A stretch of 64,000 bases of DNA from an uncultured Candidatus Saccharibacteria bacterium (lineage in GTDB: Bacteria; Patescibacteriota; Doudnabacteria; UBA920): the NCBI GenBank assembly GCA_964490395.1, contig CAZBAS010000001.1, forward strand, positions 19,815-83,814, in the 5' to 3' direction. Below, piece by piece: positions 36,807 to 59,746 of the stretch. Position 1 is the stretch's first letter; each line of letters opens with the position of its first letter. Under the pieces are notes generated by a model. It did not search any database and was not told the origin of the DNA. It was given only the letters and a program-made list of their open reading frames with translations. The position numbers were made by a program, and so were the translations under genes.

Positions 36807-37739
36807 ATGAAACCAAATAAAAATGTAACGCCTCCTGCGCATGAAGCAGATAGGCTCGCAGTAGAAATAGAAAAAGATGCAGCGCTCGTAAAACGCTTTG
36901 GCTATCGCGGTTCCTTCGTTATTTTATTCGTTGCCGTTTTTCTGCTGATTGGTATTTCGCTGTACGCGGCGCTGTCGGCCTTTACCTCGCGGAGCTTAGC
37001 GCTGCAGTCGCAAAATGCAGATGCTGCATGGCTGAATACGTTTGGTTCCGGGAGTGGCGGGTCTGCGCCGAAAACGATTAGTGGGTATAAAGCTCCAGCT
37101 CCCACAGCAACCGATCCTACTCCAGCGGTAGAGGCGGCAACTAAGCCTGGTATTTGTCCACGCGGCTTAGTAACAGTGTCGCCGGGTACTCTCACTGTAG
37201 GGGGTCCGTCTGCTACGGTTAGTGCGCCTGCGGGTTGGAAAGAGGGTTCTTTCCATTCTACTAACCCTAGTGTTATTCGTGTAGACGGTACTACGGTAAC
37301 AGCCGTGAGCGCTGGCTATGCGCAAGTCTATGGTATAGATTTTCGAGCGGGTACTGAGTGGCCTTGTACTGCCGATGCAGTGGGTGTTACTGCCCAGGGG
37401 GCGCCACAAATAAAACCAGCGTTCATAAATGGGTATGAGGTTATTAGTGACTGTGGTCGCTCCTCAGCAACACTCAGAGCAACCGCAGGCGTCCCTGGTG
37501 AAATTCGTTTTACTGAAATTCGAAATGAAGGTGGTACTACGGCAAGCTCGTACCGTGGCGCGAGAACAGCGAAACTTACCAAGCTTGGCGATGGAAGCTA
37601 TAGCGGTCAAATTACAGTTCGGACACGAGATTTTGGTGAAGGGCTGGCCGCAATATTTAGACTATATGGTGCCACGGGAGAACAGCTGGCTCCAGGGTAT
37701 GCCGCAGTAAGTCATGATTACGACAGTTCTTGCCAATAG
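36807..37739 (+). CDS. Bitopic membrane protein with an extracellular Big_2-like Ig domain.
   Basis: Cytoplasmic N-terminus, single TM (FVILFVAVFLLIGISLYAAL), and extracellular segment VSPGTLTVGGPSATVSAPAGW..FHSTNPSVIRVDGTTVTAVSAGYAQVYG. Confidence 0.45.
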   Translation: MKPNKNVTPPAHEADRLAVEIEKDAALVKRFGYRGSFVILFVAVFLLIGISLYAALSAFTSRSLALQSQNADAAWLNTFGSGSGGSAPKTISGYKAPAPTATDPTPAVEAATKPGICPRGLVTVSPGTLTVGGPSATVSAPAGWKEGSFHSTNPSVIRVDGTTVTAVSAGYAQVYGIDFRAGTEWPCTADAVGVTAQGAPQIKPAFINGYEVISDCGRSSATLRATAGVPGEIRFTEIRNEGGTTASSYRGARTAKLTKLGDGSYSGQITVRTRDFGEGLAAIFRLYGATGEQLAPGYAAVSHDYDSSCQ

Positions 37740-37846
37740 TCAAAAAGCATAATTACTCAATAGGGAATAGTCGTATATACACCATCGGAAACGATGGTGT
37801 TTTTTTTGCACTCGATTTACCAAGGAGTATCGTTTATACTACGCAT

Positions 37847-40714
37847 ATGGCTACTACCACAAAACACGCTCGATACATGCTTATAGATGGCAACGCCCTC
37901 GTGCATAGGGGCTTTCACGCTGTGCCCGGTCTTACTATTACCAAAACCGGGGAACCCATTGGCGCGGTATATGGATTTACCATGATATTGCTTCGCGCAA
38001 TTAAAGATTTAAAACCAACTCACGTTGTCTGTACCTTTGATTTGGCCGGGCCAACATTTCGTCACGAACAATACGCAGACTATAAAGGAACCCGTGCTAA
38101 AACGGCGGACGATTTAGTTCCGCAATTCCCGCTTGTAAAAGAGGTGGTGCGTGCTTTGAACATACCAATTTTTGAAAAAGAAGGCTTTGAAGCGGATGAC
38201 GTTCTTGGAACACTGGCGGTAGAGTTGTGTAAGCAAAATAAAGATGGTTGCGATGTTATGATAGTGACGGGCGATATGGATGCCATACAGCTTGTTAACA
38301 AGTGTGTAAAAATTTATACTTTGCGCAAAGGCATTACCGATACTGCCATATACGATGAAGCAGCTGTGCTGGAGCGCTATGGCTTTGCACCAAAGCAAAT
38401 GATTGACTATAAAGCGCTGCGCGGAGACCCGTCAGATAACATAAAAGGAGTAAAAGGCATTGGCGAAAAAGGAGCCACAGATTTAATAAAAGAATTTGGA
38501 AGCATAGACGCGTTGTATGAGGCAATCAAGAATCAAGAACCAAGAGTTAATGACCTCATAAAGCCACGCATACTTCAGTTGCTCATAGACCAAGAAGAGT
38601 CAGCTCGGCAATCCTACCACCTCGCGACCATTGTAACAAATGTGCCTATAGATATTGAAATCCCACCCTATAATTTTGGTGCGGCTGAATCTGCTGCCGC
38701 AGTAGAGGTTTTTAAAAAATTCGAGTTTAAGAGCTTGGTAGATAAGTTGCCGAAAGGGTATGACTCTGACGCTGGGCGAGTAACGGAAAGTGGCGTGTCC
38801 GGCCCCTCTCCTCGCGAGGAGAGGTTGGGAGAGGTCGCAGTAACGAATGATAATACATCAAAAGTTTCTATGACCCCCACTAGCTCCCCCTCAAGAGGGG
38901 GAGGACAGGATGTGCCACCTATCGGCAAGCAAGACTATCAGCTTATTGATACTGAGCAGAAATTAGATAAGCTCGTGGCGAAGCTGGAAAAGCAAAAAGT
39001 ATTTGCGTTGGACACAGAAAGCACTTCGCTGAGCATTATCGACGCAGAGCTGGTTGGTGTGTCTATTTGTTACACGCCTGGAGAAGCCTACTATATTCCA
39101 GCTGCTACCGTGCTTTCACATAAGGCTTTTGTGAAAATACTTGAAAGCAATATGCATAAAGTTGGTCATAACATTAAATTTGACCAGCACATGTTGCAGA
39201 ATGCTGGTGTTACTCTCGGCGGTATATATTTTGATACCATGATTGCATCTTATTTACTCAATGCAGGTACCCGCCAGCATGGATTGGATGCACTTGCGTT
39301 CAACGAACTCGGCTATCAAATGCAGCCGATAGAGGATTTAATAGGTAAAGGCAAAACAGCTATTGCCATGGACCAGGTTCCGGTAGAAAAAGTTTCGTGG
39401 TATGCCGCAGAAGACGTGGATATTACGTTTCGGTTGTACGAACTATTTGCACCCAAGCTTACCGCAGATAATCTAGAAGCCATATTCGCCGACATAGAAA
39501 TGCCGTTGGTTCCCGTGCTGGAACGTATGGAGCGAGAAGGCATCTTATTAGATGTACCATTTTTAAAGAAGCTTTCGGACGAAGCAGAAAAAACCATTTA
39601 CAGCCTTACCAAAGACATACACAAACTGGCAGAAGAAGAGTTTAACATTAACTCACCTACACAGCTTAGAGAAATATTATTTAATAAACTCGGTTTAAAA
39701 GCAGAGTTTGCTAAAAAAACAAAAACAGGGTTTTCTACTGCTGCTGGTGAACTTGAAAAACTGCTTGGCCAGCACCCCATTGTTGAAAAAATAATGCAGT
39801 ACCGCGAGCTTACGAAACTGCAAAATACCTACTTGCTGGCACTACCAGAAATGGTAAACGCTACCACTAAACGCATTCACACCAGTTATAACCAAACCAT
39901 TGCTGCTACGGGCCGGCTTAGTTCTGTAGACCCAAACCTGCAAAACATACCCGTAAAGGGCGATGGTGTAGGTAGTGAGATTCGCAAAGCCTTTGTGGCC
40001 CAAAAAGGATATAAGCTCCTCAGTTTAGACTATTCACAAATTGAACTTCGGGTGGTTGCGCATTTATCTAAAGACGAGAGCATGCTCGAAGTATTTAAGT
40101 CGGGCAAGGATATTCACACGAGCACTGCCATGGGTATATTTAATGTGCCAGCAGATAAGGTAACCAAAGACATGCGTCGCCACGCAAAAACAGTTAACTT
40201 TGGTATTCTCTATGGTTTGTCTGCATTTGGTTTGTCGTATCGCATAAGTGAAATAGCCAACGGGGATGCAAAAGAGTATATAGATAAATACTTTAAGACC
40301 TATCCGCGAGTGAAGGAGTATTTAGAGAAAGTAAAGACCGAGGTGAGAGATAATGGGTTTGTAACAAACGAACTTGGCCGTATGCGCAAGTTTCCTGAAA
40401 TAAAATCGAGCCAGTTTTTTATTCGCCAAGCCGCAGAGCGCGCCGCCATTAATTTTCCCATCCAGTCTTTAGCTGCTGATGTTATAAAAGTCGCCATGAT
40501 TAATATCTGGTCAAAGATCAAAGATAAAGGATTAGAGATAAAGATGTTGCTTCAGGTACACGACGAACTCGTGTTTGAAGTAAAGGAAAATAAGGTACAA
40601 GAATATATCAAACTTATAAAACCTCTTATGGAAGACGCCATACAATTGTCTGTCCCCGTAACCTCTGACGCCAAAGTTGGAGATAGCTGGGGCGAAATGG
40701 AGCAGTGGTCATGA
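37847..40714 (+). CDS. polA: DNA polymerase I.
   Basis: 5'-3' exonuclease (LIDGNALVHRGFHA), 3'-5' exonuclease and polymerase domains (RRHAKTVNFGILYG, QVHDELVFE). The start was taken at the ATG at 37847, since the track ORF at 37730 adds a non-conserved 39-aa extension. A low-complexity linker (SPSRGGGQDVPP) sits between the exonuclease domains. Confidence 0.9.
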   Translation: MATTTKHARYMLIDGNALVHRGFHAVPGLTITKTGEPIGAVYGFTMILLRAIKDLKPTHVVCTFDLAGPTFRHEQYADYKGTRAKTADDLVPQFPLVKEVVRALNIPIFEKEGFEADDVLGTLAVELCKQNKDGCDVMIVTGDMDAIQLVNKCVKIYTLRKGITDTAIYDEAAVLERYGFAPKQMIDYKALRGDPSDNIKGVKGIGEKGATDLIKEFGSIDALYEAIKNQEPRVNDLIKPRILQLLIDQEESARQSYHLATIVTNVPIDIEIPPYNFGAAESAAAVEVFKKFEFKSLVDKLPKGYDSDAGRVTESGVSGPSPREERLGEVAVTNDNTSKVSMTPTSSPSRGGGQDVPPIGKQDYQLIDTEQKLDKLVAKLEKQKVFALDTESTSLSIIDAELVGVSICYTPGEAYYIPAATVLSHKAFVKILESNMHKVGHNIKFDQHMLQNAGVTLGGIYFDTMIASYLLNAGTRQHGLDALAFNELGYQMQPIEDLIGKGKTAIAMDQVPVEKVSWYAAEDVDITFRLYELFAPKLTADNLEAIFADIEMPLVPVLERMEREGILLDVPFLKKLSDEAEKTIYSLTKDIHKLAEEEFNINSPTQLREILFNKLGLKAEFAKKTKTGFSTAAGELEKLLGQHPIVEKIMQYRELTKLQNTYLLALPEMVNATTKRIHTSYNQTIAATGRLSSVDPNLQNIPVKGDGVGSEIRKAFVAQKGYKLLSLDYSQIELRVVAHLSKDESMLEVFKSGKDIHTSTAMGIFNVPADKVTKDMRRHAKTVNFGILYGLSAFGLSYRISEIANGDAKEYIDKYFKTYPRVKEYLEKVKTEVRDNGFVTNELGRMRKFPEIKSSQFFIRQAAERAAINFPIQSLAADVIKVAMINIWSKIKDKGLEIKMLLQVHDELVFEVKENKVQEYIKLIKPLMEDAIQLSVPVTSDAKVGDSWGEMEQWS

Positions 40715-41937
40715 GAGTTGGTGCTGAGCGAAAACGATTTCGCGAGTTTACTAAGGAGCACCATCAAGAGCAGCGAACAGCACTCGCTCAGGAAATTCGT
40801 CATATCCGCAGACAAGAGTTGCTTGAGCAACAAAGCCTGGATTTACTAATCGAGCGTATACAAGGTGAGGTGGAGGCTGGGGACTTACAAGTATCGGACC
40901 TCGCAGCAGAAATAGCGCAATTGGAAACAGATCAGGAAAAGATTGCTGAAAAGTTTTTAGCGAAGGTGCTGCACTTTATTGAATTACAGAGCGTTCGAAA
41001 AAAATTGGGTACAACACAACAGTTAAGCCGGCTCACAGAGAGTGTTACAGAGTTTAAACGTGGTCAAATTCGCACGTTTCAAGAGGCGCGCACACTTCAA
41101 ATGTCTAAGAGTAAAATAACTACTTTGCTTAAGGATTTCTCGCATGCACACAGAGACGAGGTGAAAGAGTATTCCGAAATACAGAAAAATACTTCCCTGC
41201 GAGAAGTTGCGGACAGAGAAAATTGCTTGTTTTTACATGGTACTTTAAACTACGCGAGCCCAACCGCAGCGCTGGAGAATGATGGAATATTGGACTGGGT
41301 AGATAAGATGAACGTAGTCGCAAGCGTTCCAGTAGACATAGGAAGTTTTACATTTGACGAGCACACTGTTTCTCAAGGCCAAATGTTCGGGGAAATCGGT
41401 GTAGTCTTGTATGATGGGGAAATTACTAACGCTAAAGCCTCTGACCAGGGTTCAACCAAGGGTAGTAGGGGTCGCACACCATATGCCACTCTAGAGCAAA
41501 AGGCTGTATTGGCTGGGGAGATTATTCCTCGTGCCATCCACGAGCGGGGAGACAGGTATAATGAGTTCACTGTACGCAATCCCAATATATCTGGTATTTG
41601 GTACAATTTTGAACCAAATGACTTTGACCGCAAGAAGCGTCTGCAGGGTCTGGGTGGTGCGGAAAAAATACGCAGTAAGGCAGAATCGTTTGGCGTGCCA
41701 CTGTACATTTTGCACCAGGGCAAAGCATATGAGCCACTGGCCGAAGTGGAAGGCGATTTGCGCTTGGGCAGGGAAGTTTCTTTAGAGTCTGTGCGCAAGC
41801 GACCACCTATATTTATGAGCGACGAACGATCGAATAGGATTTTTTCAGAGGTTGTTAATAGAACAGTTTTTACTAAACTAGAGCAACAAAGATTGCCTCA
41901 AGATATTCATCAAAAAATATATAAAAAAGCTGCCTAG
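40705..41937 (+). CDS. Hypothetical protein (410 aa) with a coiled-coil N-terminus, translationally coupled to polA.
   Basis: ATGGTCATGA overlap with the polA stop. No recognisable domain. Confidence 0.45.
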   Translation: MVMRVGAERKRFREFTKEHHQEQRTALAQEIRHIRRQELLEQQSLDLLIERIQGEVEAGDLQVSDLAAEIAQLETDQEKIAEKFLAKVLHFIELQSVRKKLGTTQQLSRLTESVTEFKRGQIRTFQEARTLQMSKSKITTLLKDFSHAHRDEVKEYSEIQKNTSLREVADRENCLFLHGTLNYASPTAALENDGILDWVDKMNVVASVPVDIGSFTFDEHTVSQGQMFGEIGVVLYDGEITNAKASDQGSTKGSRGRTPYATLEQKAVLAGEIIPRAIHERGDRYNEFTVRNPNISGIWYNFEPNDFDRKKRLQGLGGAEKIRSKAESFGVPLYILHQGKAYEPLAEVEGDLRLGREVSLESVRKRPPIFMSDERSNRIFSEVVNRTVFTKLEQQRLPQDIHQKIYKKAA

Positions 41938-42035
41938 GGCCTTTACAGAGTAGTTCTTACCGTTGCGAGAGTTTACTCCCCCATATCCCTTAGTGGATAA
42001 GCGCGTTTGACAATGGGTGTACGTGCGTATACCAT

Positions 42036-42674
42036 ATGGGTATGGAATACGCATCGCAAAATTGGCTCGTTCAGGTTTTGGCCTCTTGGTACGGGGTCCT
42101 AGCTTTCCTCGGGCTTGTTTTTATTATTGTGTGTAGAAAAGCGTTGGGAGATTTGGTCCGTAAGGTAACTATTAGTTTCCGAAAGGGAGACATAGAAGTT
42201 ACTAATCAGCAATCACAGCAGGACGAGTCTAAAGATGTTATTAAAACCGATGAGTATGCCAAGGTGCAAAAGGTGTTAGAAAAGCTTGAGGTAGAGAAAA
42301 TAGAAGAATTAGAAGATCTAGTAAATAACGCTCTGGAAACTATAGATGAGCAGGATAAGGAGCTTGAAGATGCAGATGTGGCTTTTAGCGCATTGTTGGA
42401 GCTTAAGGAAACGTATGAATTTGCATATCTCAACCTATACCTTGTTGAGCGCACAAAGCAAGCGTTATTGAAATTATATAATTTGGGCAGTAGCACTAAA
42501 GAGTTGTTCATTGGTTCATTGGTTTTTGATGAGTCTGTAGCAGACCCAGCGCTGGAGCGGGAAGCAATTTGCAGTGCCCTGTTATCTCATGAGCTTATCG
42601 AGGTAGCTAATAATGGTTTGCACGGCACTTCGGAAAAAGGCGAGCGGTTTCTGCGGTTTGTGGATTTGGTGTGA
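42036..42674 (+). CDS. Hypothetical membrane-anchored coiled-coil protein (212 aa).
   Basis: N-terminal TM (LVQVLASWYGVLAFLGLVFIIV) followed by an acidic coiled-coil. Confidence 0.4.
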   Translation: MGMEYASQNWLVQVLASWYGVLAFLGLVFIIVCRKALGDLVRKVTISFRKGDIEVTNQQSQQDESKDVIKTDEYAKVQKVLEKLEVEKIEELEDLVNNALETIDEQDKELEDADVAFSALLELKETYEFAYLNLYLVERTKQALLKLYNLGSSTKELFIGSLVFDESVADPALEREAICSALLSHELIEVANNGLHGTSEKGERFLRFVDLV

Positions 42675-42877
42675 CGACTGCCTTGTTGTTGGTGGATAGT
42701 GGTAAGGGCTTGCCCTGCCGCTGGCGAGGGTTACACTACGTAGCTTTAGCGAAGTAGTGGATAATCCTGTGGAAAAGTACTTTTGACTGTGGGTAAACGT
42801 TAGTTTACCATGTAAGTAAGTTCCATTTTTGAACTTACTGAACTATTCGGAAATCCCGAATAGTTGGAAAGGTTTAT

Positions 42878-43891
42878 ATGTCAGAAATAAAAGAGCAAAA
42901 TACAAGCGAAATTACTATTTATAAAGACAATGAAGGCCCTGAAGTCCAGGTCAGTTTTGAAGGCGACACAGTATGGCTTTCACAGGCACAAATGGCGGAA
43001 TTGTTCCAAAAAGACGTAAAAACTATTTCCGAGCATATTGCCAATGTTTATAAGGATAAAGAGTTAGAACCAGAAAAAACTTTGCTTAAGAAAGCCAATT
43101 CTGGTATTTCCGGAATTGCTTCAAATAAGCGGATATTTTACTATAATTTGGACGTAATAATATCTGTTGGCTACCGAGTAAAATCTAAGCGCGGTACCCA
43201 ATTTCGTATTTGGGCTACACAACACCTACGTGACTATTTACTGAAGGGTTTTGTGGTAAACCAGGAACGGCTTAAGGAACAGTCGCAGGCAAAGCTAAAA
43301 GAGCTGGAAGGCGCAGTAAAGCTTTTACAGGGAGCAGTTGAGACACATCGGTTAGATGGGTATGAAAAAGAGTTGCTCAATATAATTACCGACTACACTG
43401 CTACATGGGTACTGCTGAATAAGTACGACCACGACGAGCTAGAAATTGAGAACGTCACTAAAAAGTCAGTTTATAAACTCGACTACGAAAAAGTTACTAA
43501 GTCCATTGCGCAATTTAAAAAGCGGCTCATGGCCAAAGGGGAGGCGAGTGATATATTTGGCACTGAGTCAGGTAGTAAGTTCCAGGGTTTGCTGGGTAGC
43601 ATAGAACAAACTTGGGATGGTAAGCCACTGTACGAAAGCCTGGAAGAAAAAGCTGCACATCTTTTGTACTTTGCCATAAAGGATCACCCGTTCGTAGATG
43701 GAAACAAACGCATAGGGTCACTATTATTCCTGCTGTACCTGATAGAAAATCGTGCGCTATACAATAAACGCGGAGAGCGTAAATTAAACGACAACGCCTT
43801 GGCTGCCCTTGCCCTCTTAATCGCAGAAAGCAAGCCCGATCAAAAAGAGGTTATGGTAAAATTAATTGTAAACATAATTAACAAGAAGTGA
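42878..43891 (+). CDS. RhuM-family N-terminal domain fused to a Fic/Doc-fold domain with a Doc-type active-site motif.
   Basis: RhuM signature VWLSQAQMAELFQKDVKTISEHI...YYNLDVIISVGYRVKSKRGTQFRIWATQHLRDYLLKGF. C-terminal HPFVDGNKRIGS matches the Doc motif H-x-F-x-D-G-N-K-R. Confidence 0.7.
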   Translation: MSEIKEQNTSEITIYKDNEGPEVQVSFEGDTVWLSQAQMAELFQKDVKTISEHIANVYKDKELEPEKTLLKKANSGISGIASNKRIFYYNLDVIISVGYRVKSKRGTQFRIWATQHLRDYLLKGFVVNQERLKEQSQAKLKELEGAVKLLQGAVETHRLDGYEKELLNIITDYTATWVLLNKYDHDELEIENVTKKSVYKLDYEKVTKSIAQFKKRLMAKGEASDIFGTESGSKFQGLLGSIEQTWDGKPLYESLEEKAAHLLYFAIKDHPFVDGNKRIGSLLFLLYLIENRALYNKRGERKLNDNALAALALLIAESKPDQKEVMVKLIVNIINKK

Positions 43892-43986
43892 GCAGTAAAT
43901 AGAAAATAGTAATCAGAAAATAGAGACCTGCAGTGGTTTGTGTCTGATTACTACTTACTAATTTCTGCTTACCTACCTACATCCCC

Positions 43987-44475
43987 ATGTCTGAACGAGA
44001 ATTCTACATGTATACCGTAAGTGACGAAATACCTCGGTTTGAGCGCGCTGTTTCTGCGGTTCCGCAAGAGCATGATGATTACAAACCAGATCCTAAGTCT
44101 AAAACCGCCATGGAGCTCGCAACCATGATGGCGGGTGAAGCGGGGACCATAAAAACGCTCCTTACCGAAGGCGATTTGGATTTTACAAAAGTAGTATGGC
44201 CTACCTTCACTACTCCTGCAGAGGCAGCAGCAGAATTGGTCCGCGCGCTCAAGGAGTCTAAAACAATAGCCGAAGGCTTAAGTGATGAGCAGTGGGATGC
44301 TGAAGGTCGCATGCATATGAATGGCCAAAATGAGTGGAAGAATACGAGAGGGAAGCTTGCGTTTAGTTTCTTGCTCGATATGATACATCATCGCGGCCAA
44401 CTTTCCACCTACTTCCGCGCTATGGGTGGTAAGACACCGTCCATTTACGGCCCTTCGGCAGACTCCGCAGAGTAA
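43987..44475 (+). CDS. DinB/YfiT-like (DinB_2 superfamily) metal-dependent protein.
   Basis: Four-helix-bundle pattern with the conserved MIHHRGQLSTYFR (H-x-HHRGQ) motif. Confidence 0.6.
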   Translation: MSEREFYMYTVSDEIPRFERAVSAVPQEHDDYKPDPKSKTAMELATMMAGEAGTIKTLLTEGDLDFTKVVWPTFTTPAEAAAELVRALKESKTIAEGLSDEQWDAEGRMHMNGQNEWKNTRGKLAFSFLLDMIHHRGQLSTYFRAMGGKTPSIYGPSADSAE

Positions 44476-44539
44476 TATACGGCGCCTTACATTTTTCTTC
44501 AGTATAGTGTGTTAGTATGTTAGTAATTAAACTTATTTT

Positions 44540-44785
44540 ATGGCAGACGATATTATTGACGAAGAAGAAATAGCAGATCCGGTAATTGATACCGGCGAAC
44601 CAGCGGCTGTGTACCCAGTAAAAGATGTTGAGCGGATTGGTGTTGATACAGATCAAGGAACACCAGCAAGCGCTACGGACGATGTGGACGAAAACGATAA
44701 AATTGCAGGTACCCCAGACGATGTTTCCGATGGCGGTACAGAGGGTGACGAGGCTGGTCTCGAAGACGGCTCAATAGTAAAGTAA
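44540..44785 (+). CDS. Small highly acidic protein, probably disordered (81 aa).
   Basis: Contains 20 Asp (25% of residues) plus further Glu. Followed by a strong terminator. Confidence 0.35.
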   Translation: MADDIIDEEEIADPVIDTGEPAAVYPVKDVERIGVDTDQGTPASATDDVDENDKIAGTPDDVSDGGTEGDEAGLEDGSIVK

Positions 44786-44810
44786 ATCCAGCACAACACG
44801 CGTGCATCAA

Positions 44811-44838
44811 AAAAGACCTCGCAAGAGGTCTTTTTTCT
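44811..44838. terminator. Bidirectional rho-independent terminator.
   Basis: aaaa-gacctc-gcaa-gaggtc-tttttt, an A run and a T run flanking a 6-bp GC stem. Confidence 0.7.
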
Positions 44839-44924
44839 TGCCTCTTCGCACTAGCGAGGGGCTTCCGTTCTTTTTCTCCCCCTAATATAGGGGGAGCTAG
44901 AGGGGGTATAATTTGCTTTTAGAA

Positions 44925-45194
44925 CTAAGCTTTCTTAAGCTTGTTAATCGCTTTTGCCATGCGGCTCTTTTTGCGATTTGCAGTGTTCTTGTGAATGACT
45001 TTCTTCTTTGCTGCTTTGTCGAGCGCTGCATATGCTGCGGTAAGAGCCTTAAGGGCTTCATCTGCGTTGCTGGTCTTAACAGCGTCCTTTACGACCTTAA
45101 CTGCTGCTTTAAACTTGTCTTTGGTGCGGAGGTTGTATACCCGCTTGCGAGCGCTTCCGCGCATAGCCTTTGCGGCCGATTTCGTATTTGGCAT
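44925..45194 (-). CDS. rpsT: 30S ribosomal protein S20.
   Basis: 89-aa basic protein MPNTKSAAKAMRGSARKRVYNLRTKDKFKAAVK...AINKLKKA. Confidence 0.9.
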   Translation of the reverse strand: MPNTKSAAKAMRGSARKRVYNLRTKDKFKAAVKVVKDAVKTSNADEALKALTAAYAALDKAAKKKVIHKNTANRKKSRMAKAINKLKKA

Positions 45195-52678: not shown

Positions 52679-55600
52679 ATGCCATCTTCTGTGCAGTCAT
52701 TCGCGCAGGCTTCTCCGGACCAAAGCCGCGCGCATGGTTTTGTCAGGTTTTTGACCCAAACAAAGGTTAACCAGCTCTCCGCATTTGCAATAATAATTGC
52801 GAGTGCTTTTTCCGTTATTTCTGTGCTGTTGCACAGCACCCCAGTCACTCCGGATGAAACGTATGCGTTAGTAGCCCACGAAGGCGCCCCCATGGCACTT
52901 GCCTATGACGCAACTACCCCAGCACATCCGCAGGTGCTCGGCCGAACTACCTTGGCTCCCGTTATAAAATTGCCGGGGACCATACAAGGGTATCGCACAG
53001 CCCCAGCTGGCCAGACTTTGCCGGATGCTGTTATAACTGCAGGGGCATATGCATCGAATTCTGCAGACAGTTCCTATACCTCATCGGTTCCGGCAGGGCA
53101 GCAGGTGGTAACCACCTCAGAGCCTACGGGGTACGATGTATTTTATTCTGTGTGTACGAATTGTACAGAGCATCCCGACTCTAGTTATGTGCAGGGAAAT
53201 GCAGCTATAGTAACAGTTACCAGTTCCGGGTATGTAGATGTATGGTGGAAATACGTAGCCCGAGCCCAGCAGAATACCGGTTTAACGGTTTCTATAGACA
53301 AGGCCGAAGTTGCCGCTGGCGGTGTGTATGTGGTTTCTGCAAAGGATGCTCAAGGGCAGATTTTTAGCGGGGCTACGGACTTTGAAGTTACTGTTTGTGA
53401 TTATGCAAACAATACTCAATGCGGCGCTACGACAGTAATGGCGCCTTTGGCAGATGGGATTTTTAGTAATGGCAGAAACATTCGCCAGACTACCAGTGCT
53501 ACTCCGAGCGGTTTGTACAAGTTTCGTATACGACCTGCTGGACAGAGTGCAACTCCTTGGAGTAACCTTCTCACGGTAAAGGTGTCGCCAGTCCAAGCAA
53601 ACGCCCTTTCCATACTTCTAAGTTCTTCGACAGTTTCAACGCCGGCAACTACTGTTACCGTACCGTACGGAGGCACCTACACGCTCTATGCTAAGCAGGG
53701 TGGACAAAATTATAACGGCCAACTAGAGTACCAGCTTCAGGTGTGCCAACTCAGCAACCAGTCACAGTGTTCTGCCATGACTACTGGGCCATGGGGCAAC
53801 TATACTCTTTCAAGCGGGCAAGTAACTGTAGGGTTAGATACTACTGCACCTGGTGTATATAAGGCTAAATTCCGCCCTCGTAACCAAACAAGTTGGCAAT
53901 GGAGCAATGAAATAGTTGTTACGGTAAATGCTGCCTCTTCAGCTGGTGCTCACACGTACCAGGAAGGTAATGTGCTATTTTTGGATACAGGTGCACTAAA
54001 GGTTGGCGCGGATATCCATTGGGGTGGTGCAATAACTCACGTGCTAGCGAATGGCCTTGATATGGTTAATCGCCATGATACCGGACGGGAAGCACAATTT
54101 GCGTTGTACGATGGCGAAGCCCAGTATGATGGCTGTGCTGGCTGCTCGGGGACATTTGGCTGGGATCCGGTTCAGGGTGGTGATACCCACGGCAACGGGA
54201 GTGCTGTGCTGTCTAAGGAGCTTGGTGCAGACTATATATATACCAAGACCGCGCCTATTCATTGGAATCCTTCGGGTGTTGGTGGTGGCGCAGGTCAGCC
54301 AGTGGTGAGCGATGTAGTAATTGAGCAGTGGGTTCGTGGCGTTCCTGGTTTGCCTTCAGTTGCGCAAGTGCAATACAAAATTACACATACCGGAACCGAT
54401 ACCCATACCAATAGCTTTCAGGAGCTGCCCGCATTTTATGTAAATAAAGATTTTTCAAAAACAATTACGTATGCAGGGGATGAGCCCTGGACGAACGGTG
54501 CTACAAGCACACGAACATACCCGCCCTCTACAAACGATAGGCCTTTTTTCAAAGCTACTGAGCGGTGGGCTGCGCAGGTAAACAGTGACGGTGTTGGGGT
54601 GGGGCTGTTTGCTCCTGGTGAGTTTAATATGATGGCCGGACTGTATTTTCCCGGGGTTGGTAGTGGTGGGCCAAATGGCGATGCAACCTATTATTTGCGC
54701 CCAGAATGTGGATTTAGTTTTTCACCAGGAAGCGTTGCAGCGGGTTCGTATTACATTGCAACTGGTTCTTCTACGGCAATACGGCAAGCTATATACGCCT
54801 TGCATAACCAATTGCCAGCTAGTGATACCTGTGGAGTATATGGGTATTCAAACATGGATACTCCCACACCAAACCAAACTCTTTCTGGCTCAGTGGTTGT
54901 AGGTGGGTGGTTATTTGATAATGTTGGAGTGCAAACTATAGACGTCCTGGTTGACGGTATTGTGGTTGGTCAAGCATGGTACGGGGCCCCCCGCCCAGAT
55001 GTAATTGCTTTTTACCCAGGCGCTCCGACGAATGCTGGGTATGGATACACCTGGGACACAACAACACTTGCCAACGGGAATCATACGCTCCAGCTTCGTG
55101 TTACCGATACGAGCGGTATAGTTAGTATGATGCCTACGCGAAAAGTGGTCACAGCGAATTCTGGTGTACCGACTAGTGTGGTTCGCGATGGCTACGTAGA
55201 TACTGCGACTAGTGCAAGCATTGCCGGGTGGACGTACGATTCATCAAACGGCAACACCGGACAGCCGGTTACCATTGTAGTGGTAAGCACAAGTAATTCT
55301 CAAACAACTTTTTCTAAAACTGTACAACCAAGCGTAGTGCGCGGGGATGCGGCAGGGTATTTACACCAAACATACGGCCCTACACTTACGGTAACCAATA
55401 CCAATGAGCACCCTCTCGGGTTTGTAATAGACCCGGCAACATTTATATCAACACCAGGCACATATAAAATTCAAAGTGTTGCGACTAGCCGCGGATATGC
55501 TGTCGCCATAGATCAAGCCGCTCAGGGCCAGTTTGTGGTTGGCGCGACCTCTGCAAATCAACTCTCTGTTACGGTTGGTGCTGTCGCAGCCTCTACGCAG

Positions 55601-57319
55601 GGTAATGCCGTGTCAGTGCCGGCTGGTAGTAGCTACGCCTTAACAGCAAAACAAGGAACAGCGTCCTACACTGTGCAACCTCGCCAGCTCGATTATCAAT
55701 TAGTTATTTGTGACAATAATGGCGCCAATTGCGGCAATATGACTACCGGCGCTTGGGGGGATTATACGTTAGATGCAAACGGACAAGTAATAGTATCTCT
55801 TGGTAGTACTCCTCCGGGTGTTTACAAAGCTAAGTTTAGACCCCGCAATCAAACTACTTGGAACTGGAGCAATGAGGTAGTGGTGAGCGTGACAGGTAAT
55901 TCTGTGGCGCCGGCAACAAATCTGTATGGAGTACACAGCGCCCTCGAGTGGAAGACTTTTTTCGCCCAAGATGAGCACATAGACAAGCTCAAAGAACTTG
56001 GTGTGCAGGTTTCTCGTAGTGGGGTCTTTTGGCAGATGGTTGAACCGGTACGGGGTCAAAAAAACTGGACTTTAACCGACAAATGGGTAAACGACTTAAA
56101 CAATGCAGGTATAAAACCACTTATTTCTATTTTAGGTTCAGCTGCGTGGGCGAACGGGACAACGCCTAGCGATACCACTAATTATATGATGGTGGTTCCT
56201 ACCGAAGAGGCCGCGTTTAACCAATGGGTTGAAAACTATCGTCTTTACGTGCACGAAATGGTCGTGCGGTATAAAGATAAGGTGAAGTTGTGGGAACTCT
56301 GGAACGAGCCTAACTGGCACGAATTTTGGTTACCAGCACCGAACCCAGAACATTATGTGCGATGGGCTCAAGTAATGGAACGAGAAATAAAGTCAGTACA
56401 GCCAGACGCTCAGGTGGCATATGCAGGTTTAACCGTCCTAGATGGTTATTCCGGTATGACCGCAGGCGATATAAAAGGTAAAGACTTTTTGCAGGCAATG
56501 TATAACGCGGGTGCCCGACCAGATATTGTGAGCCTTCACCCGTACGCGTTAACCAATGCTGCCCCAGATCAGTATTCGGTTGGTGATGGTATAAGTACGT
56601 TCCGCGATGTAGAAACAATAAAGGCTGTTATGGATGCGAATGGACAGAGCAGTAAGAAGCTTTGGCTTACCGAGTTTGGGTGGGATGCTGATGTGGTTAC
56701 GGAAGCTGTAAAAGCCCAGTATTTAGAACGATCTTTTAGCCTTATTCGAGATTCGTGGCCGTATGTAACCCTTGCGACCTGGTATTTGGACTTCCTTGGT
56801 CCGCCGGTTATTCCGGCAACAACCACCAGCGGGTACGGTCTCATGAAAGTGGACGGAACAATAACCCCAGCGGGCGTCGCCTTCAAAAATTTTATGCAAC
56901 CGGATTCGGCTGTCGCGTCTACCCCTCAAAAATTACCAGTGCTTCAGGTGCATACTTCAAATGCATATGCAGGTGCTCCCGGAGCAAATGCAGTTGATGG
57001 GAATTTGAATACTATGTGGAATGCAGGAGGCTCCCCAGATCAATGGATAGAGCTGGATTTAGGGGCCGTAAAGAGCGTAAGCAAAATTCGCCTGTTGGTT
57101 GAACAAACACCAGCCGGACCAACTACCCACAAGGTCTATATGGGCAATGGTACGTGGCCGAATCAGCAACTGAAATATACATTTTCTGGCACGACCAGTA
57201 GTGGTCAGTGGCTAGAATATAATTTGCCAGCTACAGCGGATGTTCGCTATATCAGCATAGATACCACAGACAGTTCTTCGTGGGTGGCATGGCGCGAAGT
57301 AGAGGTCTATGGTAACTAA
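52679..57319 (+). CDS. Very large (1546 aa) secreted multidomain glycoside hydrolase. It has three repeated ~100-aa Cys-containing modules, Ig-like domains, a clan GH-A TIM-barrel catalytic domain and a C-terminal F5/8 type C (discoidin) domain.
   Basis: N-terminal TM/signal. Repeated modules ...CGATTVMAPLADG...YKFRIRPAGQSATPWSN / ...CSAMTTGPWGNYTL...YKAKFRPRNQTSWQWSNE / ...CGNMTTGAWGDYTL...YKAKFRPRNQTTWNWSNE. Catalytic WELWNEPN (acid/base) and LWLTEFGWD (nucleophile). Discoidin AVDGNLNTMWNAGGSPDQWIELDLG. Confidence 0.7.
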   Translation: MPSSVQSFAQASPDQSRAHGFVRFLTQTKVNQLSAFAIIIASAFSVISVLLHSTPVTPDETYALVAHEGAPMALAYDATTPAHPQVLGRTTLAPVIKLPGTIQGYRTAPAGQTLPDAVITAGAYASNSADSSYTSSVPAGQQVVTTSEPTGYDVFYSVCTNCTEHPDSSYVQGNAAIVTVTSSGYVDVWWKYVARAQQNTGLTVSIDKAEVAAGGVYVVSAKDAQGQIFSGATDFEVTVCDYANNTQCGATTVMAPLADGIFSNGRNIRQTTSATPSGLYKFRIRPAGQSATPWSNLLTVKVSPVQANALSILLSSSTVSTPATTVTVPYGGTYTLYAKQGGQNYNGQLEYQLQVCQLSNQSQCSAMTTGPWGNYTLSSGQVTVGLDTTAPGVYKAKFRPRNQTSWQWSNEIVVTVNAASSAGAHTYQEGNVLFLDTGALKVGADIHWGGAITHVLANGLDMVNRHDTGREAQFALYDGEAQYDGCAGCSGTFGWDPVQGGDTHGNGSAVLSKELGADYIYTKTAPIHWNPSGVGGGAGQPVVSDVVIEQWVRGVPGLPSVAQVQYKITHTGTDTHTNSFQELPAFYVNKDFSKTITYAGDEPWTNGATSTRTYPPSTNDRPFFKATERWAAQVNSDGVGVGLFAPGEFNMMAGLYFPGVGSGGPNGDATYYLRPECGFSFSPGSVAAGSYYIATGSSTAIRQAIYALHNQLPASDTCGVYGYSNMDTPTPNQTLSGSVVVGGWLFDNVGVQTIDVLVDGIVVGQAWYGAPRPDVIAFYPGAPTNAGYGYTWDTTTLANGNHTLQLRVTDTSGIVSMMPTRKVVTANSGVPTSVVRDGYVDTATSASIAGWTYDSSNGNTGQPVTIVVVSTSNSQTTFSKTVQPSVVRGDAAGYLHQTYGPTLTVTNTNEHPLGFVIDPATFISTPGTYKIQSVATSRGYAVAIDQAAQGQFVVGATSANQLSVTVGAVAASTQGNAVSVPAGSSYALTAKQGTASYTVQPRQLDYQLVICDNNGANCGNMTTGAWGDYTLDANGQVIVSLGSTPPGVYKAKFRPRNQTTWNWSNEVVVSVTGNSVAPATNLYGVHSALEWKTFFAQDEHIDKLKELGVQVSRSGVFWQMVEPVRGQKNWTLTDKWVNDLNNAGIKPLISILGSAAWANGTTPSDTTNYMMVVPTEEAAFNQWVENYRLYVHEMVVRYKDKVKLWELWNEPNWHEFWLPAPNPEHYVRWAQVMEREIKSVQPDAQVAYAGLTVLDGYSGMTAGDIKGKDFLQAMYNAGARPDIVSLHPYALTNAAPDQYSVGDGISTFRDVETIKAVMDANGQSSKKLWLTEFGWDADVVTEAVKAQYLERSFSLIRDSWPYVTLATWYLDFLGPPVIPATTTSGYGLMKVDGTITPAGVAFKNFMQPDSAVASTPQKLPVLQVHTSNAYAGAPGANAVDGNLNTMWNAGGSPDQWIELDLGAVKSVSKIRLLVEQTPAGPTTHKVYMGNGTWPNQQLKYTFSGTTSSGQWLEYNLPATADVRYISIDTTDSSSWVAWREVEVYGN

Positions 57320-57415: not shown

Positions 57416-58363
57416 ATGGAAGATGTAATACAAGTATCCAATCTAAAGAAAGAATACGAATTGTCTCGCGCAAATGAGTCTGGAGAAAAAGTATTTCCAG
57501 CGCTACGCGGTGTATCGTTTGAGGTGCACACAGGAGAAGTTTTTGGCATTCTTGGACCAAATGGTGCTGGTAAAACAACCACCCTTGAGATTATAGAAGG
57601 TATTCGCAGGCAAACCTCCGGCAGTGTTGTTGTGCTTGGGTTAGATAACATAGACAGTAGCCATGCTATCAAACGGCGTATAGGCGTGCAATTGCAAAGC
57701 AGTGAGTATTTGCCAGCGCTTACTCTCGTGGAGCTACTGGCCCTATTCGCTTCAATTTACGGAACCAAAAAAGACCCCATGCAGCTGTTGGGGTTTGTGG
57801 GTCTGCAAGAGAAGGCTACAGAGAAAGTAAAAAACTTATCTGGTGGCCAGAAACAGCGGTTTACTATAGCAACAAGTTTGGTGAACGATCCGGAAATTAT
57901 TTTTCTTGACGAACCTACTACGGGTCTAGACCCCCGTGCGCGTCACGATATGTGGGATCTTATTAAGCAAATAAACGCCCGTGGCACCACTGTTGTGTTG
58001 ACCACACACTATATGGAGGAGGCGGAGTTTTTGTGCAATCGTGTAGCTATTATGGACCATGGCCAGCTTTTAAAAATAGACGAGCCAAAACGGCTGATCA
58101 ATGACCTTGCACATACTACTCAAATTGCTTTTCTAACCAGCGCGGAGTTGCCAGCAGGTATATGGGCGTCTATTCAAGATAGTATTGAAAAAGTAATCAA
58201 TCAAAACCCTAAGGTTATATTGGAGGTAACATCACTCGATGTGGTTGGTCGGGTGGTAGATTTGCTAAAGCAGTGGAATATTGGTTTCAGCGGTTTTACC
58301 GTACGCACCGCAAGCCTTGAGGACGTGTATTTGGACTTAACCGGAAAAGTGTATGGAGAATAA
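57416..58363 (+). CDS. ABC transporter ATP-binding protein (ABC-2 type exporter ATPase).
   Basis: Walker A GPNGAGKTT, signature LSGGQKQR, Walker B IIFLDEPTTGLD. Confidence 0.9.
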   Translation: MEDVIQVSNLKKEYELSRANESGEKVFPALRGVSFEVHTGEVFGILGPNGAGKTTTLEIIEGIRRQTSGSVVVLGLDNIDSSHAIKRRIGVQLQSSEYLPALTLVELLALFASIYGTKKDPMQLLGFVGLQEKATEKVKNLSGGQKQRFTIATSLVNDPEIIFLDEPTTGLDPRARHDMWDLIKQINARGTTVVLTTHYMEEAEFLCNRVAIMDHGQLLKIDEPKRLINDLAHTTQIAFLTSAELPAGIWASIQDSIEKVINQNPKVILEVTSLDVVGRVVDLLKQWNIGFSGFTVRTASLEDVYLDLTGKVYGE

Positions 58364-59000
58364 TGCCCAAGGTTTGCGGAAGATTGTAATGGCTTTTGCA
58401 ATCGCTGCGTTCATTTTCTGGCTTTCCTATTATTTTATTTCATCGCAAGTGGTGAGCGTTATATTTCATAAAAATATACTATGCACATCCGTAGGGTTGA
58501 ATAGTAGTAAAGTTCAGAAATGTTATGACGTGCCGAATAAAATGGGCTTTGGTACCCCTTCAGAACTATACGAACCATTAGAAAACAAAGAAATTCCTGA
58601 AGATGTTGTGGCTAGTAATTTCTTTTTCTTTAGCCATATGGGCTTGGGTGCGGCTGTGTTGTTATCCAGTTTAGTGCTCCGCCGCTTGAACTCAAGTGGT
58701 GGGCGGAATGCTGCGGCGCAAGAACCTGGCGGCTATGAAGCAACTATTTCTCTAAGAACTACAGAAGAAGAGGGGAGGCATGCACCATTTTTTAGTGGGT
58801 ATGCAGCGGAGATATATACTGAAGGAGAATTGGTACCTGTTATATTCACGCTTACCAATAGAGAAATGGTTTCGCCGGGGGAGATTGCTGAGGTGGTTAT
58901 GAGGATAAACGCCCAATCGAACCTTGGTATGGGTCAAGAATTTGAAATTCAAGACCACGGGCACATAATCGGTAGTGGTACTATTACTAAAATTTTATAA
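58353..59000 (+). CDS. Membrane-anchored protein whose C-terminal ~90 aa resemble EF-Tu domain 3, inserted between the ABC ATPase and permease genes.
   Basis: N-terminal TM (IVMAFAIAAFIFWLSYYF). The C-terminus YEATISLRTTEEEGRHAPFFSGYAAEIYTEGELVPVIFTLTNREMVSPGEIAEVVMRINAQSNLGMGQEFEIQDHGHIIGSGTITKIL aligns with EF-Tu [89 protein letters not shown]. Overlaps the upstream gene by 11 nt and shares its ATG/stop with the permease gene. Confidence 0.6.
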   Translation: MENNAQGLRKIVMAFAIAAFIFWLSYYFISSQVVSVIFHKNILCTSVGLNSSKVQKCYDVPNKMGFGTPSELYEPLENKEIPEDVVASNFFFFSHMGLGAAVLLSSLVLRRLNSSGGRNAAAQEPGGYEATISLRTTEEEGRHAPFFSGYAAEIYTEGELVPVIFTLTNREMVSPGEIAEVVMRINAQSNLGMGQEFEIQDHGHIIGSGTITKIL

Positions 59001-59746
59001 TGTATATGTCATTTTTAGAGCTCCTCAAAGCTAATTTAAAAATCGTTTTCCGCGATACAGGCGGCTTGTTTTGGACGGTGGCGTTGCCAGTGGTTATTTA
59101 TGTTGCGTTATCGCTCTTGCCCATTGGCAACTTCTTTAAGCTCGACTTCAACTACTCTGCATTTGTCCTGCCGGGTATTATTAGCTATGTAATAATGCAA
59201 GGTGGTATATACGGGCTTGGATATTGGATGGTAGACATGCGCGCGCAAGGGGTTATAAAGCGGTTTGTGGTAACACCACTTAGGCAGTGGGAGCTCGCAC
59301 TCGCAGTTGTGTGCTCGCGGCTTGTGGTTATGCTTATACAAGTGGTATTGCTCACCGCAATCGGCGTTCTTGCGTTCCATACGGCGTTTTACTGGAACAT
59401 ATTTTCCATCTTGCTATTTACTATTCTGGGAGGGAGTATATTCCTTATGCTTGGTCTCCTTATTTCTACGGTGGCAAGTAGTTACCAGGCAGCGGCCCCT
59501 ATTACTGCGGGCATAGGTTTGCCCCTCACCGTGCTTGGTAATATGTTTTTCTCAGTGTCAGTACTGCCCGTGGCGCTACAGTGGGTAGCAAAGGTTTTGC
59601 CTATCACGTATTTAGCTCAGGGCTTGCGCGCGGTATATCTTGAGCCGTTTAGCATAGAGCCGCTCGCAATTCCCGTACTCATTTTGTTCGGGTGGTTTGC
59701 TCTCATGCTCGCGCTTACTGTGTGGCGCTTTAAATTGAAAGAATAA
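59000..59746 (+). CDS. ABC-2 type transporter permease.
   Basis: Six TM helices in the ABC-2 permease topology. Translationally coupled to the upstream gene. Confidence 0.8.
   Translation: MYMSFLELLKANLKIVFRDTGGLFWTVALPVVIYVALSLLPIGNFFKLDFNYSAFVLPGIISYVIMQGGIYGLGYWMVDMRAQGVIKRFVVTPLRQWELALAVVCSRLVVMLIQVVLLTAIGVLAFHTAFYWNIFSILLFTILGGSIFLMLGLLISTVASSYQAAAPITAGIGLPLTVLGNMFFSVSVLPVALQWVAKVLPITYLAQGLRAVYLEPFSIEPLAIPVLILFGWFALMLALTVWRFKLKE

Follow-up and report, generated by a model that had tools for sequence, protein, structure and literature searches.

A solitary RhuM/Fic/DOC family protein with a Doc-type active-site motif in a patescibacterial chromosome, a candidate cis-controlled toxin

What does a gene that joins a RhuM-like N-terminus to a Doc-type Fic domain do in a chromosome where no antitoxin is encoded beside it? 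The question is raised by an open reading frame (ORF) at 42878..43891 on the forward strand of a 64,000-nucleotide stretch of contig CAZBAS010000001.1 (positions 19,815 to 83,814; this whole stretch is called the window below) from an uncultured Candidatus Saccharibacteria bacterium, a member of the Patescibacteria. An earlier description made from the letters of the DNA, the sequence-only reading, took the product for a noteworthy RhuM-Doc fusion with an active site of the EF-Tu kinase type. The gene encodes such a fusion. It belongs to a large family that has already been named, within which it is ordinary, and the fusion is not new. We propose, at a little short of an even chance, that the protein is a solitary single-chain toxin, a cis-controlled Doc-type kinase which would probably act on EF-Tu once released by a trigger such as a phage.

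Domain architecture and active site

The gene is complete, opens with an ATG and encodes a protein of 337 amino acids (aa) within exactly the coordinates first read. Both profiles named in the sequence-only reading match above their Pfam gathering cut-offs, PF13310 (Virulence_RhuM) with E 9.4e-24 and 84.5 bits (cut-off 33.7) and PF02661 (Fic) with E 2.6e-10 and 41.4 bits (cut-off 24), and with the two in one chain the claimed fusion of a RhuM N-terminus to a Doc-type Fic domain is real. The RhuM assignment holds for the N-terminal module (N-module below): the PF13310 alignment spans aa 82-137 only, which are positions 17-72 of the 252 in the profile, therefore the module is present but not the whole RhuM domain. 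Classical RhuM (Salmonella pathogenicity island 3 (SPI-3); PF13310; PADLOC PDC-S05) shares the N-module, including its YNLD..ISVGYRV.S..GTQFR.WAT core, with the window protein, in which positions ~73-252 of the profile are absent and are replaced by a linker and the Doc-type domain. The parts of the gene are as follows.

42878..43891, + strand: RhuM/Fic/DOC family protein, PADLOC PDC-S23 type, 337 aa (ORF, Pfam, PADLOC)
42899..43297, + strand: RhuM N-module, aa 8-140 (Pfam, PDC-S05 models, AlphaFold2 model)
43298..43477, + strand: helical linker, aa 141-200 (DSSP of models, invariant alignment columns)
43478..43888, + strand: Doc-type Fic domain, aa 201-337 (PF02661, predicted local distance difference test (pLDDT) ~90, P1 Doc fold match)
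43685..43711, + strand: active-site motif HPFVDGNKR, aa 270-278 (translation)

The active-site motif is the Doc variant HxFxDGNKR, as had been stated, and the AMPylating form HxFx(D/E)GNGRxxR is not matched by the window protein: Lys277 stands where the Fic motif has its second Gly, Ser281 is at the second-Arg position, and a regular-expression search of the protein for the inhibitory helix motif [ST]xxxE[GN] gave no hit. HxFxDGNKR with its Lys is the Doc signature in the sense reportedly given to it by Castro-Roa and colleagues in 2013, a Lys at the position of Lys277 separating Doc from the AMPylating Fic enzymes. Across the 55 aligned nearest relatives the stretch DHPFxDGNKRIG, from D269 to residue 280, is invariant; exact HxFxDGNKR is found in 227 of 268 family proteins, and 211 of these 227 have Ser or Ala at the second-Arg position. 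Judged by its motif, the domain may reasonably be expected to have EF-Tu kinase activity.

The predicted Doc-type domain consists of six helices that map one-to-one onto those of Doc, with a short hairpin (aa 244-250) in addition. A Foldseek search of the PDB returned P1 Doc (3k33, 3dd7, 3kh2) as the best compact match, with probability 1.0, a template modelling (TM) score of 0.62-0.69 normalised to Doc and an identity of only 16-18%, and PHROG 577, "Doc-like toxin", is matched with E 3.6e-12. P1 Doc, the EF-Tu Thr382 kinase of the Phd-Doc system, has in common with the window protein the six-helix core and the motif HxFx(D/N)(A/G)NKR with its diagnostic Lys; the window protein differs from it by an N-terminal extension of 200 residues (a Bro-N-like module followed by helices), by the predicted flap-like hairpin, by a gene that stands without Phd or another antitoxin and by a sub-threshold match to TIGR01550. 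Sequence and profile matches to PDB chains, namely SoFic and 9vzc (a 139-aa Doc-family protein), cover the motif helix only (E 0.003-0.02) and were set aside as too weak for residue-level inference.

The full-length AlphaFold2 model was computed with 55 homologues and has a mean pLDDT of 70.8, with ~90 for aa 200-337 and lower values elsewhere, and a predicted TM score (pTM) of 0.48. A second model, restricted to aa 1-215 and built from 70 more diverse sequences, reaches a pLDDT of 82.9, with residues 31-70 at >=94. In these models the N-module runs from a beta-hairpin (aa 11-28) through a strand and two helices (aa 31-59) to wing strands (aa 69-89), a helix-turn-helix (HTH)-like pair being predicted within it, and the conserved RhuM core is "YNLDVIISVGYRVKSKRGTQFRIWAT", with a core helix at aa 91-101. 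The N-terminal half (aa ~5-145) matches more than 20 RhuM-only PADLOC models of PDC-S05, and one RhuM-only model of 212 positions, PDLC04854, extends over aa 9-215 including the linker. Comparison of the N-module to predicted phage structures gave 26 models of Bro-N, KilA-N, antirepressor or repressor domains at E<=1e-3 (1e-5 to 1e-3) with TM scores up to 0.67; in the PDB no solved relative was found (best E 0.28), the Bro-N family of Pfam does not match the window protein even at E<=10, and a classical RhuM relative matches the Bro-N family with E 6e-4, below the cut-off. As modelled, the N-module appears to have a Bro-N/KilA-N-like fold. It behaves as a swappable module, because relatives join it to other C-termini or place Crp-type HTH domains ahead of it.

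The linker continues a very long helix (aa 104-155) and includes a conserved one (aa 162-184), as assigned by DSSP in the models, and in the 55-sequence alignment its residues G161, Y162, E163, I170, Y173, W177, L180, Y183 and D184 are invariant. It may possibly be a dimerisation or an autoinhibitory element, the latter perhaps through helix 162-184 filling the groove that Phd takes up in 3k33.

Family membership and the solitary gene

Three PADLOC models of PDC-S23, which is a candidate single-gene defence family, match over the full length. The closest is PDLC04965, which aligns with aa 8-336 over profile positions 3-325 of 327 at E 9.2e-122, and two further PDC-S23 models match with E 1e-117 and 1e-110. 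Beyond this full-length profile match, the window protein agrees with the PDC-S23 / COG3943-Doc fusions in length, domain order, motif and solitary status, and no structural difference from them was seen; what differs is the setting, a Patescibacteria chromosome with a conserved polA...rpsT slot instead of a restriction-modification (R-M) operon, plasmid or transposon. At least 8000 homologues came from a search of 5.8 billion proteins. Among the matches listed, all 120 are 303-382 aa long and carry both PF13310 and PF02661, their source names including "virulence protein RhuM/Fic/DOC family protein" and "prophage maintenance system killer protein". When the representatives of 50%-identity clusters were searched exhaustively, 644 were found at E<=1e-30 and 8892 at E<=1e-10, and RefSeq plasmids hold 16 full-length copies, named "virulence protein RhuM/Fic/DOC family protein" by the Prokaryotic Genome Annotation Pipeline (PGAP). 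The homologues span environmental, non-pathogenic phyla and metagenome-assembled genomes (MAGs) of candidate phyla, and an identical protein with the same neighbours is present in a public assembly.

The literature on these fusions is equally not recent. Fico & Mahillon 2006 (PMC1626090) described homologues of Doc (TasB) whose N-terminus is of the COG3943/RhuM type and which have no antitoxin upstream. In 2013 Anantharaman et al. (PMC3710099) again described RhuM-DOC fusions lacking an antitoxin, placed them in R-M defence neighbourhoods and inferred a role in defence. Papers have thus covered the architecture, the Doc-type motif and the lack of an antitoxin since 2006, and all three are encoded by annotation pipelines and by PADLOC; the view that the fusion is noteworthy in itself has to be given up, and its finding alone adds little. 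The residual value lies in the reminder that a very abundant family (at least 644 clusters at 50% identity) yielded no biochemical assay in the literature searched, and a clear, testable prediction, that of a cis-regulated Doc kinase, can be made for it.

Full-length members of the family with the motif altered to RPFxDGNKR or HPFxDGCKR (P0122, P0124, P0203, P0212, P0213, P0216, P0221; P0181, P0186, P0192, P0202, P0204) were also recorded. Their sequences suggest that these His- or Asn-substituted proteins form non-catalytic branches, or branches of altered chemistry, within PDC-S23.

The neighbouring ORFs are as the sequence-only reading had them: two uncharacterised proteins, a DinB-family protein and a hyper-acidic protein of 81 aa. 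polA lies upstream (37730..40714); downstream, on the minus strand, are rpsT and uvrB. An ORF of 410 aa (40705-41937) comes immediately after polA and overlaps its stop; next is the upstream neighbour of 212 aa (42036..42674), and neither has a family match; after the RhuM/Doc gene come the DinB-family protein (43987..44475, match E 4.4e-6) and the 81-aa protein (44540..44785), which has 26 Asp and Glu against 4 Lys and Arg, an isoelectric point (pI) of 4.05 and no family match. The last might mimic DNA or be disordered, and no evidence links it to RhuM/Doc. The 410-aa ORF is the only truly variable gene of the block, being replaced in close relatives by a 113-aa ORF or absent. The term "accessory block" for 40705..44785 is only partly apt: the GC content (0.41-0.47) is the same as in the rest of the window and the block is syntenic in close relatives, where orthologues of 88-89% identity show the order polA, variable ORF, ~210-aa protein, RhuM/Doc, DinB, acidic 81-aa protein, rpsT.

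The absence of a Phd-like antitoxin, which had likewise been claimed, is borne out. No Phd-like ORF lies upstream, where the 203-nucleotide (nt) leader that separates the gene from the unrelated 212-aa gene holds only ORFs of chance size (28-31 aa). A cryptic antitoxin among these was considered and rejected, as conservation in syntenic relatives does not extend to this stretch of the leader. The contexts of the relatives were compared over 79 species-level loci taken from genome assemblies by ORF clustering and Pfam annotation, with the following arrangements.

polA upstream: 14 of 79 loci, all in Patescibacteria
rpsT downstream: 9 of 79 loci
HD-domain gene upstream: 9 of 79 loci
ftsK, RhuM/Doc, rodZ-like gene, recA, in this order: 4 of 79 loci
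neighbour in DNA-methylase or ResIII gene clusters: 6 of 79 loci, with RhuM/Doc directly between both in L086
beside a canonical Fic_N+Fic gene: 6 of 79 loci

No neighbour cluster is common to the 79 loci, and no conserved partner gene emerges from them; relatives on plasmids and in a transposon are solitary too. As no small neighbour is common to contexts so varied, running from housekeeping slots to R-M operons to a place directly after a Tn3 transposase (the Legionella plasmid copy), the missing antitoxin is a property of the family and not a local oddity.

The gene is under strong purifying selection. The ratio of nonsynonymous to synonymous substitution rates (dN/dS) is 0.044 and 0.019 in comparison to the two closest orthologues (L002 and L004), to which it is meaningful only, dS being saturated beyond them. 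Values of 0.02-0.04 imply a functional gene.

Proposed function and the main alternative

We propose that the Doc domain is a protein kinase rather than an AMPylase, as its Lys-containing motif suggests, and that translation would be stopped by it, most probably through phosphorylation of EF-Tu as in P1 Doc. Translation, and probably EF-Tu, is the most likely target, given the analogy to P1 Doc and the fact that SoFic also targets EF-Tu. SoFic, a class II Fic protein of Shewanella oneidensis and a listed anti-phage system, likewise combines a Fic fold with a DNA-binding domain and binds its own promoter, and a dual transcriptional and translational role has been proposed for it (bioRxiv 10.64898/2026.07.09.737422). 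Unlike the window protein, SoFic has the GNGRxxR motif, an inhibitory glutamate helix, a Fic_N domain and a C-terminal winged HTH, it modifies switch I by AMP transfer, and its sequence similarity to the window protein is confined to the motif helix (E ~0.003-0.02). Since there is no antitoxin, the enzyme is presumed to be restrained in cis, by its own N-module and linker. A trigger such as phage infection would release it, with growth arrest or abortive infection as the outcome.

The gene may in addition be autoregulated at its leader, in which the following features were found.

42783..42811, + strand: promoter-like TTGACT-17-TACCAT, tentative (consensus scan)
42815-42839, no strand assigned: perfect inverted repeat AGTAAGTTC/GAACTTACT (repeat search)
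42841-42865, no strand assigned: perfect inverted repeat AACTATTCGG/CCGAATAGTT, abutting the ribosome-binding site (repeat search)

The promoter-like block is conserved in the syntenic relatives L002, L004 and L009. Both repeats are of 9-10 bp; the second one is near-unchanged at the locus of a 65%-identical orthologue (L010) and absent from L004 and L009. Tentatively, they may be operators for the Bro-N-like N-module or hairpins in the 5'-untranslated region (5'-UTR) of the mRNA.

The gene is a candidate single-gene anti-phage toxin. A PDC-S05 member, which has the N-module without Doc, protects E. coli B against T7, T5 and T4 (bioRxiv 10.1101/2024.09.26.614923), some relatives of the window gene are found in R-M operons, and a role in defence was also inferred in PMC3710099; the defence reading is drawn from these three points.

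Several results weigh against a cis-controlled EF-Tu kinase with a role in defence. The pTM of the full-length model, only 0.48, limits any reading of cis-autoinhibition from the predicted structure. TIGR01550 (DOC_P1) scores 30.6 bits, below its cut-off of 38.65, with only aa 251-291 aligned, and at an identity to P1 Doc as low as 16-18% the target may not be EF-Tu. In several relatives at ~50% identity the catalytic His (RPFxDGNKR) or the Asn (HPFxDGCKR) is gone, therefore catalysis is not conserved family-wide, though it is conserved around the window gene. In the literature searched for "PDC-S23" there is no paper, and no biochemical or phage assay of any member. Finally, the Patescibacteria copies are syntenic with polA and rpsT and diverge as slowly as PolA, which is atypical for defence genes.

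The last of these points leads to the main rival that the data suggest, a domesticated regulatory role in Patescibacteria, by which a vertically inherited, DNA-binding Doc-type enzyme would tune translation or housekeeping, for instance in the dormancy of a small-genome episymbiont. We hold this unlikely. It draws on the loci listed above that keep polA or an HD-domain gene upstream or rpsT downstream, on the low dN/dS, on the conserved promoter block and leader palindromes, and on the precedent of the dual role of SoFic. In the polA-linked loci, PolA identities of 57-61% pair with RhuM/Doc identities of 53-65%, and the identity of RhuM/Doc follows that of PolA with a Pearson coefficient of 0.88; this value is however driven by three close relatives, and the Spearman coefficient reaches only 0.50 (p 0.07). 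Within this clade the gene is also found in the slot between ftsK and rodZ-recA or, as a 77%-identical copy, after dnaG-rpoD, so the gene moves, and outside Patescibacteria the family is found in R-M operons, transposons and plasmids. A narrower form, in which a domesticated DNA-binding Doc-type kinase beside polA/rpsT would throttle translation (e.g. through EF-Tu) for growth control or dormancy, possibly under autoregulation, appears quite unlikely.

Comparison of loci L008-L034 (Patescibacteria MAGs) with window positions 37730-45194 shows a deeply conserved order of polA, an HD-domain gene or a ~210-aa protein, RhuM/Doc and rpsT. The Patescibacteria copies, being stable, slow-evolving and chromosomal, could offer a clean system in which to ask if such "toxins" have housekeeping roles.

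Chemistry, neighbours and the EF-Tu domain 3-like ORF

A cis-controlled Doc-type kinase acting on EF-Tu is also challenged by the view that the Fic/Doc domain performs another modification (AMPylation, phosphocholination or other), acts on a target other than EF-Tu, or is a non-catalytic binding module. The remote similarity to P1 Doc with the sub-threshold TIGR01550 score, the existence of His-less and Asn-less relatives and the hairpin at aa 244-250, which in the model resembles the flap of classical Fic enzymes, are in line with it. So is BifA of Streptococcus equi subsp. zooepidemicus, a RhuM+Fic protein likened to the window protein by domain order from its description (RhuM at the N-terminus, Fic at the C-terminus), whose reported target is moesin, not EF-Tu; the Fic histidine is needed there and phosphorylation of the target is raised (PMC6529018). 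On the other side, all residues of the Doc motif, Lys277 among them, are kept, the anion hole of GNGRxxR is lacking, and the motif is invariant in the 55 nearest relatives. This explanation is, in our judgement, likewise unlikely.

It is improbable that the protein is a conventional type II toxin and that one of its neighbours, be it the acidic 81-aa, the DinB-family or the 212-aa protein, is an antitoxin not recognised as such. The three genes are co-oriented and conserved beside RhuM/Doc in the closest relatives, the DinB gene begins 12 nt after RhuM/Doc in the 74%-identical L009, and the acidic protein with its pI of 4.05 could in principle bind the Doc domain (pI 9.2). As partners, however, all three had to be rejected, because outside the nearest relatives they no longer accompany RhuM/Doc: the acidic protein does so only at >=88% identity and DinB only at >=74%, and no neighbour cluster is common to the 79 loci. 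In the window, gaps of 203 nt upstream and 95 nt downstream leave no translational coupling, none of the three matches an antitoxin family, and no upstream antitoxin was found for COG3943-Doc fusions in PMC1626090 either.

The sequence-only reading had further suggested that the ORF at 58353..59000, 15 kb away, encodes an EF-Tu domain 3-like decoy paired with the Doc domain. The target residue of Doc, Thr382, lies in EF-Tu domain 3, and the match of the 215-aa product, in its C-terminal barrel, to this domain is genuine (PF03143, E 2.4e-10, aa 128-214). The pairing does not follow from it. The ORF is flanked by an ABC ATPase gene (57416..58363), with whose stop its start overlaps, and by an ABC-2 permease gene (59000..59746), whose start meets its stop, and hydrophobic segments occupy the N-terminal half of the product, which is accordingly predicted to be a membrane-anchored protein inside an ABC-transporter operon, with unrelated genes between it and RhuM/Doc. 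Aligned to solved EF-Tu chains, the product has IQDHGHIIGSG where EF-Tu has IREGGRTVGAG (GGRTVGAG being changed to HGHIIGSG), which puts Ile205 at the position of Thr382. Among the 5.8 billion proteins the product matches only itself, therefore the genomes with 88-89%-identical RhuM/Doc orthologues lack it, although orthologues at 85-89% identity are common. A toxin/decoy pair is thus very improbable, and the vicinity of the two genes is, as far as sequence can tell, a coincidence. No genuine tuf gene is present in the window.

Least of all can a secreted virulence effector be conceived of, as suggested by the RhuM name and by BifA (reported to be a secreted virulence factor that acts on human moesin in host cells and has the same RhuM + Fic order), since the homologues reach into environmental, non-pathogenic phyla and candidate-phyla MAGs, the modelled N-terminus is not signal-peptide-like but begins with disordered, hydrophilic residues, and the genomic contexts are those of housekeeping or R-M genes.

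Some minor observations may be added. Upstream of the ABC-transporter operon a very large ORF of 1546 aa (52679-57319), rich in Thr/Ser/Gly repeats, looks like a surface protein or a glycoside hydrolase. In six unrelated genomes (L035, L037, L050, L068, L074 and L081) a canonical, AMPylase-type Fic_N+Fic gene lies at most three genes away from RhuM/Doc, an arrangement that may represent a pairing of two Fic proteins.

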